This document shows, in pieces, positions 8,976 to 60,515 of a stretch of 64,000 nt of DNA. The position numbers and the translations under genes were made by a program. Origin of the DNA: Eledone cirrhosa. Lineage: Eukaryota. The DNA is taken from assembly GCA_964016885.1 (NCBI GenBank), contig OZ024742.1, forward strand, positions 84,940,001 to 85,004,000, written 5' to 3'. Every line of letters begins with the position of its first letter. Position 1 is the stretch's first letter. Under the pieces are notes generated by a model. That model saw only the letters and a program-made list of their open reading frames with translations, searched no databases and was not told where the DNA came from.

Positions 8976-9568
8976 TGATTGTGCCTAGGTTTGTGACGTA
9001 TCGTATCATGATTATTCCGCTTCGGAATCACATTAATGGTACACGAGTTTGTTGAATATTGAAGCAAATTCTTATATTTGATGGTTTTGTTTAGTTTAGT
9101 GTTTTAAAATACTGAATATTTCCCTCGTATAATATATGGTATTCTAATATCAGTCTACTTTCATTTCTTAGCTGAAATTAGTTCTTGCATTTGGGTATTG
9201 ATTGTTGTAAAATGTCTGGAGACATCCATATAGAGGAGACGGTTTATAATTTTCTGTTGAATTAATAACTAATGGTGGTCTCATGTATCAGTTCTTTTAA
9301 TTATGAGACCCTATTAGGGTGAAATCCAATTTTTCTCAGTATTGAAAGTGTTACTATATTAGTCATTTTAGTCGATATTAATGTAGTATGTGACCAGGAA
9401 CATCATTTCGTTTTGAAACTTTAGGTGTTAACATATAGCTTGCACATACATTTAGGTTGTATAGGATGAAAAGTATATTTTATATATATATATATATATA
9501 TGTAAAGATGAAATCGAAAATGCAATTGGAGTCTTATTTTTAAAAAAATATATATATTTATCTGGTTC

Positions 9569-9604
9569 CTTTACCGGTTTCGCAGTTCTTCTGCTTTTCA
9601 AAAG
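9569..9604 (-). ncRNA. Minimal hammerhead ribozyme motif, U3-A8 variant (family I)
   Basis: CTT TTGAAAA GCAG-AAGAA-CTGC GAAA CCGG TA AAG; palindromic ACCGGT stem III; identical copy at 45326..45361. Confidence 0.6.
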
Positions 9605-12249
9605 TAGAGTTGAGATGGAGGGTCTGTGGTTTTTCTCTAAGAAAAACCACAGACGCCCCCTCGTGTAGGACACCTCGGTTATTTTTCATTTTAAAAAAAA
9701 CCTCACTTTCTAATATATATATATATATATATATATATATATATATATATATATATATATATTCTAAAGTCTCCGTGGAGTTATCTATGATCTTACTCAA
9801 TAGTTTGGTCGACATTCCGTCTTTCTGTCGTCTGCGTTTGTTGTTTATTTCATGATTTGCTTTGTGAGTTTTCCAAAGAATTTATTGCTTTGAAGGTTAT
9901 GTCATTATCTGCGGTTATTCTCTTCCGTAGATTCTTTCCTTTGTGGAGGAGGATGTTATGTTTTGTGTGTAGTTGCTTTTGTTTAATATATGTTTCGGCT
10001 ATGTTAGGATATTTTTTGTGTGATTATCATTATATACTTGCATTGCGTGATATTGTTAGTAGCCATATATATTTGAGGTGGTTGTAGTGGGGTAATTATG
10101 ATAACTGTCTGTCATATATCTCTATTAGCTCTATAGTGTTATTGAAATTTAATTTCAAACCTGAATTTCTTTAATTAAACACAGAGTACGTCAATTTTTT
10201 AAAGTGTTTCAATGTGTTGAATATAGTATTGTTGTGAAAGAGACATGTATTTCCTATTTTTGTAGGTAGTTGGTCCAAATGTCTATAAAATGCTAGATTT
10301 TACTGTACTGGGTGTAACAGACTTTGTTCGGGGGAAATGATTTTGAGTGAACAATGCTTCTGAACGACGAGCTTAGTAAATTCGGACCATGCTTAACTTG
10401 CTAATTGGTTTATTAATGGATATATTTATTAATAAATATGTTTGAACCGATTGTGAAACATCATATATTTGTCGTTAGGTTATATGCACAATATATTATG
10501 AGCAGAATTTATCATATGTGAAACGTGATATTCATCGGATATTTTCTTCTTCTTCTTCTTCTTCTTCTTCTCTGCTGTTTTTTCTTCTTTATCTTTATAT
10601 CAGACTTAAGTTTGCATCGATAGTATGCTTGGATGAGTGCAATATCTATCATAACAAACATGTTTATTTCCAAAACGATTTCTGTCTATACCCGGAACAG
10701 CATACAATAAACTGTATCCATATAAGGCTTTCTAAAAGTATTTTCATTGATTGAATTGGTAAGTCGAATGTTTAATCAGTATTGATTTCTGATAGTAACG
10801 GTGTCTGGACAACTGCACAGCTGGGGTACTATGTACATTTCTCATAATTTTATCATCCCAAGAGAAGTTGTTATAGATAGAAGGAGTTATTGTAGCAAAT
10901 AATCAGGGATTATATATGCTTTTTACATTATCTCTGGGCATTGTCAGTTTAACAATTTGCAGTAATGAAGATATATGAGTATTTTTCACAATCACGCTAA
11001 TACATGCATACACACACACACTGTGTAACCACACTAACACACACGTACGCACTCATGCACAAATATATTTGTATACATATTAATGTGGATGTTTGTGGGA
11101 GCATCTATGGAAATACGTACACATACACATACACATACATAAATACACGTATAACTACATATATATGTATTTATATATAAATATATATGTTTATATGTAT
11201 ATATGTTTATATAAATAAACGCACACACATTCACACACACACATACCCACACACCAATACACACACACACACACACACACATATATATGTATGTATGCAT
11301 GTGTGTGTGTGTAGATATAAATACGATAGTGTGTGTGTTTGTTCGTGTGTAGATATATATGTACACGTATATGTATTTCCAAATAAAAATATAACTTTTT
11401 TGTATCAGCGATAATAAATAAATAACGTAATGGCATTCGCACAAAACTGTGATTTATAGCTGTTTCTACTGGGAATTATTGTTCTAAGAACATACGCAGA
11501 CACAGACAAACATAGAGAACCATATATAAGGACACAGACAGACAATCACACAAACACTTACAAGTGCAACACACGCAGATGCAAATGGGCACGCATCCAC
11601 ATACATGGGTGAAGATATAGAGTCACACGTGAACAGATGAAGTCTACTGTCTGCGCCCACATGTCTCAAGAGAATCCTATGTATATATGGGTTATTTTAT
11701 ATATACACGTACATGGACACACACACATAATCACACACACACAAACACAAACACACACACACAAACACACACACATACACACACAGTATATATATATAAT
11801 TCTTATATGAGTGGCTATGTGAACATGCGTGTGAGATTCTTTATGGGTGCATGAATATTTGCTCTAATGACTAACAATTCAACTGTCTTTAGAAATTATT
11901 CATTCAGTAAAACAACTAAATGTCCATCTCTCTCTCTCTCTCTCTCTCTCTCTCTCTCTCTATATATATATATATATATATATATATATATATATATATA
12001 TATATATATATATATATATATATATATATAAATGGCTTCTACAGGACTAGAACTGTTTCAGTTTCCTGATGATTTCCTTCGAATGAAACAGTTTGAGTCC
12101 TGTAGAATGCATTTCTATATTAGATATTTATACTCTGCTATGTATTAAGTGCCTTACTTACTCTGGTTACCTATATATCTGGTTATATATATATATCATT
12201 TGGATACGTCGGCATATGTGATGTAATAATAATAATAATATCGATAATG

Positions 12250-13820
12250 ATTTATTTATTATTGGCCACAACGGCTGAACATAGAGGACAATACAAAGAC
12301 GGGGACAGTGGTGGTTTACAATAAAATCAAGAAAAAACATGAAGATAACAAAAAAACTATTAACAATAAAAAATATAATAATTCAAATTCGCCGATAGTT
12401 GTAATGACCGACCAGATACGACATTGATCATCTACTAATGCTGAAACCGCCGACAATTCGAGAGCACCATGGAATGGCACCCTTCACACCCTCAAATCAA
12501 CCAACCTGCATTCACCTTTGAGCAAATAGTCTGCGGGTCAGCACTTCCATCTCCACCTTCCAATTCCTTTCCATGTGAAAGTTGAAAAGTTGGATGAGTG
12601 ATTGGTGGAAGACTGAAGTGTCTATCTTCACTCCTTTCAGCCTCGACCACGACACAACCGTTTTCGCTAGTTTCCAGGAAGAGAAAAACTGCCTGCCATT
12701 CCAGGCCAAAACGAGGCGGTGGAGCGATCTTTAATATGGACTTGGTCAATAGCCCGATCCGTCCAATACGCGATAACAGCTATTGACAAACTCCCCAATT
12801 GAGTAATCCACGGATACTGGACAATACCTACAGAACGCTTTCATTACTCTGCGCTCAACACGGACAGGTCCGACTGACCGCACTTCTGTGTCTTTAGTGT
12901 TTATCTCTTCTGGTAACATTGTAAAGCGTATCATTTCGAGAGGTTTCCATAACTCCCAGCCAGAAATTCTTCAGTTTAATTTCATCGACGACCGGCGCCT
13001 CTCTGAGAGCGCAGACACACTTGCACATCTCAATCTTCTATTGAGTGGAATTTCCGCAGATCGCATTGCCCGCTTTGTTGTGGTAAAAGAACGGCTGGCA
13101 GCATTCCAGATGCCATGCGCCCAGTCTCAATCTATACTTGACCCGGGACTGAAGCTCACTCAAAGAGACGAAAGTCAGAGAGACATGTCACACAAACGAC
13201 GACTACACCTGTTCACCATTGAGGCAGAATATCTGGAGATGTCATAACCAAAGATCATGACAACACATCGTCACCCAAAACATATCTAGCTCTCTGCGTA
13301 GAGAGTGGTAGCTGCAGATGGACGGCTTCACAAATAGACTCTGATCCTTCCACAACAAATTGAATAGCAGTCGTTTCAATATTGAGCGGTGACAACAGGG
13401 GCATGGTAGATAATGAGGCCGTAATACATGAAGGACACGATAAAGACGTTCGCTCCCACTGCCTTACCATTCAGGGATAGCTTCCTGATGCCCCATTTCT
13501 GAGTGAGTATAGCCATACTGCACTTTATCTCGTGTCATTTCTCTTAAAAGAGTAGGGGTGATCTGAAACAGACAACGAGCAACTTCACAGGGTCGTCCGC
13601 CAAAATCGGACGTCGCTGTTGAACGGCAGGGATTTCCTTCCCCGGGTGCCAAGCTGCAAGCCCACTGACTTTTCCGGGTTCAGATATATTTCCGCCAACC
13701 TTCAACTCCTCCAAGAATGGGCCGATTTTCTATGTGTTCGAAAGCACCACGCTTATACCGTCCGCATATGCCGACGCAGCCCTTGCACGTCGCCGTTCGA
13801 GGGATTCCCTGCGACAGTTT
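12250..13820 (-). mobile_element. Older 5'-truncated copy of the same Tx1 family
   Basis: 12250-12320 is the reverse complement of the 3' end at 7968-8039, with a TAA tail at 12224-12249. KIAPPPRFGLEWQAVFL matches KIDPPPSFGQEGQAMFL. SAYADGISVV (YADD remnant) lies near 13750-13775. Confidence 0.75.
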
Positions 13821-59336: not shown

Positions 59337-59816
59337 TTACTTCTCTAAAAACCTGGCATTTCGAACCACTTTTTTCCATATAAAACAGAAGTAACATTCA
59401 AAGACCAACCAGATGTGAGAAAAACCACAGACACTCCATGTCAACTCTACTTTTGAAAAGCAGAAGAACTGCGAAACCGATATAGGAACCAAATAAATAT
59501 ATATATTTAAAAAAAAAAGACTCCAGTTGCATTTTCCATTTCATCTTTTTCCTTACACTTTCATTCGTGTAGGACACCTCGGTTATTTTTCATTTTGTAA
59601 AAAAAAACCTCACTTTCAAATATGTATATATATATATATATATATATATATATATATGTATGTATACGTACATACATATTCATTCTTTTGCATTTATCAT
59701 TTTCGGTATTCCCGGCCGACTAACTCACTAGATATGCAAATTAGGCTGCTCAGCCGTTAATATGCATAAGGAAGGTATATACTTTCAGACGTTCAATCCT
59801 CTGACAGAAAGGTATA

Positions 59817-59857
59817 CGATGCTGACGATAGCTAATAAGCTTGAAATTAGTACATCG
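59817..59857 (+). ncRNA. Minimal hammerhead ribozyme (family D)
   Basis: CGATG CTGACGA T-AGCT-AATA-AGCT-T GAAA TTAG TA CATCG. Confidence 0.8.
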
Positions 59858-60515
59858 TTGTGTCAGGTTTGAACAAAAGGGCGACGATCGTTGCCGAGCA
59901 CTGTACGGCGTAATTCGGGCTGTTTGTTTACAAACAAACTGAACATTATAATAACTGTTCGGTAAACCCATACGAACATATACGTATATATAGTTTTATT
60001 AGTTTCACGCCCCATATTAGATAAAAGGTAAAACAATTTGACGTGTCGGGCTTAAGCCCCTTTTCAGGAGTTCAGTACAAATAGAGACATGATCACAATG
60101 GAGAAACAGAAAGAAGGTCCAATAAAGACACACATACACACATACACACAAAAAGAAAACGAAAACTGAGAAGGAAAACAAAAAGCCGTTATGTAGTCTT
60201 GGTAACGTGTAGGAACGCAAGGTAAAATGTGTAAAGTTAGAGAGTTTATGGTATGTATCCTTGAGAGTGTATCCAAGTGTTAGTGTAGAGTGTATTATGA
60301 GAGTGTATCCGTGTGTTAGTGGTAGTGGACAAGCATGTTTGAGTGGATCTACATTTAAATGTGTGTACTGTTTATGTGCGTTGAAGTAATTCGTTTGTGT
60401 GTGTAAAGTATCGGTAGTGTAAAGTATGTATGTGAATGAATGAGTTAGTATGTGTGAGTTTATGATAAATTTTAACGTGTGCATGTATGTGTCAGACGAT
60501 ATTCATACATATATA

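Follow-up and report, generated by a model that had tools for sequence, protein, structure and literature searches.

The window, a 64-kb stretch of the Eledone cirrhosa genome, very probably holds the hammerhead-bearing 3' ends of ten families inserted at TA: four are truncated coding Penelope-like elements (PLEs), and six are non-coding and likely copied in trans by PLE reverse transcriptases (RTs). A previous sequence-only reading had described a non-autonomous retrozyme-like system made up of at least nine unrelated non-coding families. Ten families were distinguished, but two of them (E and I) are related and four (A, C, K and L) are ends of ORF-bearing PLEs. The retrozyme-like description fits D, E, F, H, I and J, which carry a PLE-type footprint, and not the truncated coding PLEs, to which 9 of the 19 listed motifs belong.

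A strict hammerhead descriptor matched the window 13 times, against 0.28 ± 0.67 matches (maximum 3) in 40 local dinucleotide shuffles. A structure-aware descriptor with a stem I of at least 3 bp gave 17 matches, against 2.08 ± 1.63 (maximum 6), and these include 15 of the 19 positions listed earlier. The remaining four (14349, 40103, 42906 and 56987) carry the motifs of the same families, each with one letter changed. All 19 are type I hammerheads with three stems, the conserved core and an NUH site at which cleavage is predicted; 9 lie in the coding families A, C, K and L and 10 in the non-coding D, E, F, H, I and J. The A, K and H motifs lacked a stable fold on their own (z about 0). Rfam hammerhead models gave no match in the window at gathering score; for family I the best Rfam score was 20 bits (HH9) against 52, and an E-value scan of the window was dominated by TA hairpins. 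A tRNA search found none. A descriptor match at 43887 was treated as chance.

In 60 evenly spaced 10-kb pieces of the genome we obtained 67 strict matches versus 2.7 expected by chance. By this sampling the density is ~110 motifs per Mb, or roughly 3x10^5 per genome, and the motif density of the window is typical for the genome. A (TA)6+ tract lay within 250 nt downstream of 56 of 66 strict matches in these pieces (background 0.19), in agreement with the earlier observation that the motifs adjoin TA tracts. The U3-A8 core was present in 14 of the 67 sampled hammerheads; 28 of the 67 belonged to families A, C, K and L and 5 to a confirmed non-coding family.

Judged from the sequence of genomic copies, families A, C, K and L are 5'-truncated ends of PLEs. 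A GIY-YIG endonuclease (EN) lies upstream of the motif in copies of all four, and RT plus C-terminal GIY-YIG was found upstream of the pLTR for A, K and L. In family L an open frame of 712 aa lies 208 nt upstream of the hammerhead motif; K has RT and EN in three loci (L173, L174 and L177), and A has both, frameshifted, in one (L180). For C, EN lies ~1.15 kb upstream in four loci (L302, L308, L311 and L239), where Pfam was blank and the examined sequence stops short of the RT. Pfam detected the RT of L weakly (RVT_1, E 6e-4) and was blank for the RT pieces of A and K, so that the assignment of A and K rests on tblastn and motifs. K and C, with a CxCx5C linker, a (TA)n target and a hammerhead, appear to be pLTRs of Hydra-like PLEs, a clade assigned by motifs and not by a tree, and L and A probably those of Neptune-like PLEs. 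The 3' end of a fifth coding PLE occupies the window end (63493..64000, plus strand), with a GIY-YIG domain (PF01541) and a hammerhead 38 nt past the window end; intact 905-aa RT-EN copies of it occur elsewhere. No fewer than five coding families, between them using two linker types, end on TA, and the proposal that one TA-targeting PLE drives all the elements is not supported.

The family A stump at 9501..9713 has both arms, with (TA)n on both sides; the minus arm ends at the short site and contains a hammerhead of the U3-A8 type with its core at 9601 and cleavage predicted after 9572, and the plus arm ends at the long site. A second A stump is folded back (45188..45546; U3-A8 hammerhead 45358-45329, minus), and a longer plus-strand copy (58275..59624) comprises a CA-rich 3' untranslated region and the pLTR, with a mutated hammerhead near 59445. 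Family C is represented by a minus-strand end (14337..14474) with a U3-A8 hammerhead and long stem II, in which GAGA stands for GAAA, and by fold-back stumps at 23660..23905, with the 3' part of the ribozyme only, and 52000..52195, with the inversion point inside stem II. Family K left a decayed minus-strand end (23502..23623) and fold-back stumps at 45573..46197 (hammerheads 45669-45621, minus, and 46010-46058, plus) and 56859..57235 (57043, minus, where one letter breaks stem II, and 57137-57185, plus). The fold-back stump of family L (53978..54705) has hammerheads at 54173-54139 (minus) and 54450-54484 (plus). A fold-back stump of a further family, B (12031..12183), has a hammerhead at 12066 that was absent from the earlier list.

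The six non-coding families have tandem periods of 319 nt (E), about 310 nt (I), 429 nt (F), about 420 nt (H), about 700 nt (D) and 2803 nt (J), with longest stop-free frames of 51-119 aa. Family D (16664..17882) has a minus arm of more than one unit (hammerhead 17034-16962) and a plus inverted arm. The E copy (17929..18299, minus) spans 1.16 units, and its U3-A8 hammerhead (18095-18059) has a long extended stem I. Family F occurs as head-to-head arms (18582..19206; hammerhead 18884-18854, minus) and as a plus-strand copy (59679..59989; hammerhead 59822-59852). The H copy (23989..24502; hammerhead 24159-24126, minus) has GUAA where 12 of 14 passing family matches have GAAA. Family I is head-to-head (39199..39854), with hammerheads at 39361-39331 (minus) and 39657-39687 (plus) and its short end left and long end right. 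Family J (40049..43566) comprises a complete minus-strand unit with hammerheads at 42959 and 40156 and an inverted arm with a hammerhead at 43318-43367 and a 143-nt tail. E, I, F and H are non-coding tandem units of 150-450 bp with a type I hammerhead, as in non-LTR retrozymes. D and J fall outside this size range; they would work like non-autonomous PLEs and are not filed as retrozymes. A systematic chimera scan returned only one junction, between D and E, its TA filter having left out locus L316. E-like DNA was also present in sequencing-run contigs of four organisms, a DNA-level result that is silent on expression.

Ribozyme structure was examined for compensatory change in the E superfamily only. 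E (18055) and I (39325/39651) share 75% identity over 155 nt, with equal spacing to the ribozyme. Among ten related ribozymes 93.5% of paired cells were kept, compared to at most 39.6% in slid controls, and both sides had changed in 9 of 14 pairs, the structure being drawn from those same sequences. Core pair 3-8 was U-A in seven and C-G in three. This covariation of the stems and the 3-8 pair, together with the excess of strict matches over shuffles, indicates that the motifs are real type I hammerheads. A subfamily of C at 96-98% identity has a C3.A8 mismatch, predicted to make a poor ribozyme, yet it has spread.

Every family has two fixed 3' ends, short and long, 34-143 nt apart and downstream of the ribozyme. 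Head-to-head insertions on (TA)n paired one short with one long end in 132 of 135 cases (J, K, L, A, C, I and E), a partly selected set since the J and C queries favoured long ends, with the 905-aa family left out and F scored apart. The pairing was seen in 25 of 25 cases in unselected DNA and, on separate scoring, in 10 of 11 for F, 9 of 9 for E, 2 of 3 for D and 2 of 2 for H. Terminated ends ran into (TA)4+ in 316 of 343 cases (J, K, L, A and C). In all six families that allowed the comparison, the two arms of an insertion were more alike than arms taken from different insertions, and the letters that mark the C subfamilies matched across the arms in 31 of 31 and 30 of 31 cases. In all ten families the short site carries a TA patch of 3-10 nt within the element itself (4 nt in J, 5 nt in F).

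An inverted 5'-truncated copy with a tail at one end was thus found in all ten families, and coding and non-coding families share this insertion footprint. A one-end tail with an inverted 5' copy is reported for PLEs, and insertion in (TA)n for the Hydra clade (Craig et al. 2021, PMC8557442); nicking of both strands and two internal RT starts are reported to create the tail (Frangieh et al. 2024, PMC11167929). Both reports describe the footprint as PLE-specific. Since the non-coding units show it, PLEs likely mobilise them.

If every family were an ordinary truncated or internally deleted coding PLE, the short units would be pLTR tandems left by deletion. The sequence-only reading had itself raised this possibility, and it holds for four of the ten families (A, C, K and L); a recent preprint also derives retrozymes from pLTRs (Li, Clavereau & Pollet 2026, bioRxiv 10.64898/2026.07.22.740005). 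For the other six no convincing PLE coding match was found: five PLE proteins searched by tblastn against the non-coding units gave only one 18-aa match (E 0.69). Neither the coding pLTRs sampled nor the EN-to-hammerhead segments yielded a coding partner among the best 40 matches per search, apart from nested neighbours and one marginal 37-nt match of J to the 3' region of C (E 1e-4); with 40 matches scored, a coding version that has the same end but is more distant may have escaped. Against a deletion origin, E, I and their relatives make up a superfamily in which the spacing is constant and the ribozyme changes are compensatory, no body upstream of the unit is shared by any E locus (L048-L072), and J spreads as a complete 2.8-kb unit that lacks a coding trace, its far 5' body being 98-100% identical in 40 of the 40 best scored matches. 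We consider truncation an unlikely account of all ten families.

The non-coding units might instead be moved by a LINE (RTE, CR1 or Tx1) or amplified in tandem at the DNA level, TA being shared as a safe harbour only. LINE RT fragments do occur in the window, and the missing PLE partner among the sampled coding pLTRs would fit. However, the head-to-head footprint with one short and one long end equals that of the coding PLEs, and the copies are dispersed, with at most about three consecutive units in the DNA examined, making this extremely unlikely. We also consider it very unlikely that (TA)n tracts are created or extended by the elements through telomerase-like slippage on the short-site patch. 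Such slippage would draw on the presence of that patch in all ten families and on the sister relationship of PLE and telomerase RTs (PMC8557442), and tracts in contact with a recurring end slightly exceed the others in length (median 33-38 versus 25 nt). Yet 471 of 670 tracts touch no recognisable recurring end, and adjacent tracts average 44-50 nt, no more than the 66 nt that splitting of length-weighted tracts would predict. Two insertions lie in a repeat that has a tract of its own; together the two halves measure 79 and 74 nt, versus about 70-80 nt in an empty paralogue, and an empty-site search brought up no TA-free site where an insertion had added TA. The suggested expansion of TA tracts thus left no sign in tract lengths or in filled versus empty sites.

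In the preferred reading, with PLE enzymes acting on both kinds of family, a GIY-YIG endonuclease would nick the two strands of a (TA)n tract. The self-complementarity of (TA)n would allow either freed 3' end to prime inside the RNA; both would do so, one starting at the short site, where TA pairing probably aligns it, and the other at the long site, and the two cDNAs would be joined where they stop. The palindromic stem III would let two ribozymes of a tandem transcript release an RNA one unit long, which may circularise. This excision or circularisation step looks dispensable for at least some coding families, and insertion by Poseidon PAc is reported to proceed without need of a ribozyme (PMC11167929). 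Tandem units were closer within than between copies in I and D, slightly so in F and not in E and H; with this mixed result a circular template remains a proposal. It is doubtful, if conceivable, that the non-coding families are circular-RNA retrozymes recruiting PLE enzymes by structure alone, with no sequence in common with the partner's pLTR, the TA patch serving as a telomerase-like alignment region on the nicked (TA)n primer that forces one short and one long start, and that a self-feeding community of about 3x10^5 ribozymes has spread over the TA tracts of the genome in this manner.

Most component observations are already published, and the ten families may already be catalogued. A literature search with most subscription papers, supplements, Repbase and Dfam outside its range yielded no report of hammerheads in octopus genomes, nor any of non-coding elements with a one-short-one-long PLE footprint. 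PLEs have been proposed as the mobiliser of animal retrozymes, with co-occurrence and similarity of pLTRs as the arguments so far (Cervera & de la Pena 2020, PMC7229834; bioRxiv 10.64898/2026.07.22.740005). Here, non-coding hammerhead units carry the PLE-specific footprint beside coding PLEs. Both kinds include young families: many young multi-unit copies were seen for E and J, and the 905-aa coding family has intact frames. The start sites can be placed with an accuracy of a few bases. The published in vitro PLE assay therefore offers a direct test of trans-mobilisation, of priming by TA pairing and of whether cleavage is needed. The genome also amounts to a very large natural collection of hammerhead variants of a kind missed by Rfam in the window.

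Among known systems, K and C resemble the EN+ PLE Hydra clade (PMC8557442) in the CxCx5C linker before GIY-YIG, the pLTR hammerhead, (TA)n, the inverted 5' copy and the one-end tail, but their tails measure 80-90 nt instead of 30-40 nt, and C differs further in its U3-A8 core and in having a C3.A8 subfamily. Neptune/Nematis-type PLEs (PMC8557442) are resembled by L, A and the 905-aa family in RT, cysteine linker, C-terminal GIY-YIG, microsatellite target and minimal hammerhead; family A departs from them in having U3-A8 in the core and about 1.4 kb of 3' untranslated region. The minimal hammerheads described in PLEs likewise have a palindromic helix III and are mostly single truncated copies (Cervera & de la Pena 2014, PMC4209133). 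That report includes opposite-strand pairs 100-700 bp apart in metazoan PLEs, about 1,300 matches to the U3-A8 variant in Schistosoma, and thousands of motifs per genome, compared to the 3x10^5 estimated here by sampling with a different descriptor. E, I, F and H share with animal non-LTR retrozymes (PMC7229834; bioRxiv 10.64898/2026.07.22.740005) non-coding, AT-rich tandem units of 310-430 nt with a type I hammerhead. In contrast to those, the copies here are dispersed (TA)n insertions of 1-3 units with a PLE tail and inverted arm, the units lack clear similarity to the coding pLTRs sampled, and D (700 nt) and J (2.8 kb) are larger than usual. Poseidon PAc in vitro likewise nicks and extends both strands, with two internal RT starts setting the tail at an AT-rich target (PMC11167929). 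Its start site is reported as not homologous to the target and as showing no difference between strands, whereas in the families described here a TA patch lies at the short site and insertions combine a short end and a long end.

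A type I hammerhead descriptor (core C3-G8 or U3-A8, three stems and an NUH site) returned 17 matches with stem I of at least 3 bp in the window, compared to 2.08 ± 1.63 in 40 local shuffles. Strict matches numbered 13 versus 0.28 ± 0.67 (40 local shuffles). The hammerhead motifs named in the sequence-only reading are real: 15 of its 19 positions are among the 17 matches, and the remaining four are family motifs one letter off the descriptor. Rfam at gathering score gave no match within the window. In family E (letters denote the repeat families), 93.5% of paired cells were kept across ten related motifs, with both sides changed in 9 of 14 pairs and a core 3-8 pair of U-A in seven motifs and C-G in three. 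Note that related sequences may beat shuffles without structure; slid controls for the E-related motifs pair at most 39.6%. By predicted folding, E and I form a long extended stem I (z ~ -7), and the A, K and H motifs folded alone are not stable.

Genome-wide searches covered eight of the ten families, with the best 40 matches scored for each and long copies retrieved; the remaining two, L and I, were characterised from copies inside loci retrieved for other families. All families had been proposed to be non-coding. This held for six (D, E, F, H, I and J), and four proved to be ends of coding Penelope-like elements (PLEs). L adjoins a 712-aa frame of reverse transcriptase (RT) and GIY-YIG endonuclease (EN), 208 nt upstream. 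K is preceded by an RT and by an EN whose linker is CxCx5C, C by an EN of the CxCx5C type, and A by a frameshifted RT and EN followed by a long CA-rich untranslated region. The 3' end of a fifth coding PLE (63493-64000) reaches the right edge of the window. Elsewhere in the genome this family has an intact 905-aa RT and GIY-YIG frame (loci L028 and L029); its hammerhead is minimal, with a stem III of two letters. It is very young, and ~70 places are 100% identical across a 90-aa endonuclease query. Judged by motif descriptions in PMC8557442, L and A resemble the Neptune/Nematis type, as does the 905-aa family, and K and C resemble Hydra elements. In one C subfamily (L291-L315; 96-98% identical, 40 matches scored), core position 3 is a C opposite A8; its ribozyme is predicted to be weak or dead, yet the subfamily was amplified.

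The non-coding units measure 319 nt (E), ~310 nt (I), 429 nt (F), ~420 nt (H), ~700 nt (D) and 2803 nt (J; complete in L035 and L046). Their longest frame is at most 119 aa, and comparison with PLE proteins gave no meaningful match. By sequence, E and I are one superfamily. The 5' body of J showed 98-100% identity in all 40 scored matches. An octamer-like motif lies upstream of the ribozyme in F (59725-59790), with a TATA-like box, and in H (24200-24310), where it is repeated; F and H match over 24 nt at this region (E-value 0.004). We take these parts to resemble snRNA-type promoter parts.

In each family, the 3' ends fall at two constant positions downstream of the ribozyme, a short and a long site spaced 34-143 nt, both abutting (TA)n. 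Of 343 terminated ends in families J, K, L, A and C, 316 continued into (TA)4+. Head-to-head insertions paired one short with one long end in 132/135 cases (J, K, L, A, C, I and E; J and C cases partly selected by query) and in 25/25 cases in unselected DNA. By family, the pairing was found in 10/11 (F), 9/9 (E), 2/3 (D) and 2/2 (H) insertions. Subfamily letters are common to both inverted arms of an insertion. At the short site, a TA patch of 3-10 nt lies within the element in 10/10 families examined (all of the listed ten except H, together with the 905-aa family); TA at four long sites with readable continuation is 1-3 nt.

Because their footprint is the same as that of coding PLEs, the non-coding units are likely carried as PLE passengers. 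According to PMC11167929, a PLE protein places nicks in both strands of AT-rich DNA and extends them, reverse transcription begins inside PLE RNA at two sites bounding the tail (the stretch between the 3' ends), and the ribozyme needs protein and is dispensable for insertion in vitro. We infer that self-complementary (TA)n would be nicked twice, yielding two primers. One would begin at the short site, probably via TA pairing, and the other at the long site of the same RNA or one of the same subfamily; the two cDNAs would meet where each stops. Since both start sites are downstream of the predicted cut, the template would be either a circle or a tandem transcript left uncut. For the predicted ribozymes, the compensatory change in E argues for cleavage kept under selection in that family, and the spread of the C3·A8 subfamily fits optional cleavage for coding families. 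The suggestion that the elements expand TA tracts was unsupported. No coding partner family of the non-coding units was found among the coding pLTRs (PLE repeat ends with hammerhead) sampled. At L316 (6065-6946), 1.56 E units are joined without TA to a 5'-truncated pLTR of an L-related Neptune-like family, with a Hydra-like endonuclease fragment on the other side. This single case is possibly a template switch, hinting at an L-related partner for E.

Other repeats are TA-bounded or of fold-back form but hold no hammerhead that passes the descriptor; they occupy 20188-20414, 38533-39174, 53077-53152, 56621-57730 and 62856-63490, the last being A-related with a decayed U3-A8 motif. LINE fragments (RT, endonuclease and zf-RVT matches), transposase-like remnants and a 132-bp SINE-like tandem jointly account for 779-2416, 6166-7758, 36374-37570, 60476-61232 and 25409-25922. 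Two of these repeats are presumably DNA-transposase remnants; a Pfam search of both gave no match.

Sixty evenly spaced 10-kb pieces of the 3.0-Gb genome contained 67 strict matches versus 2.7 in 10 shuffles, a density of 73-153 per Mb that extrapolates to some 3x10^5 in the genome as a whole. The window is typical of Eledone cirrhosa. (TA)6+ followed within 250 nt downstream in 56/66 sampled matches (background 0.19; 0.27 within hit-holding pieces), and (TA)n makes up 4.4% of the sampled sequence, compared with 4.0% in the window. The coding families A, C, K and L together contributed 28 of the 67, F 5 and the extra fold-back family B 7. The other 27 (L231-L290) are outside the family library, several in head-to-head pairs.

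The literature searched held no report of a PLE footprint on non-coding hammerhead units, of a strict pairing of short and long ends together with a TA patch, of a non-coding family of 2.8 kb such as J, or of hammerhead abundance on the Eledone cirrhosa scale. The hammerhead observation itself is real and mostly known biology. Opposite-strand pairs, palindromic helix III and the U3-A8 core are known in PLEs (PMC4209133), this core is reported active (PMC3088659), the tail and inverted pLTR are known (PMC3846280, PMC8557442), and Hydra and Naiad target (TA)n (PMC8557442). An octopus repeat annotation describes active Penelope families, with ribozymes absent from its main text (PMC13282606). Retrozymes, and the hypothesis of their mobilisation by PLEs, are likewise described in PMC7229834 and bioRxiv 10.64898/2026.07.22.740005, with copy numbers reaching 120,000 in axolotl and exceeding 6000 in a coral (PMC7229834).
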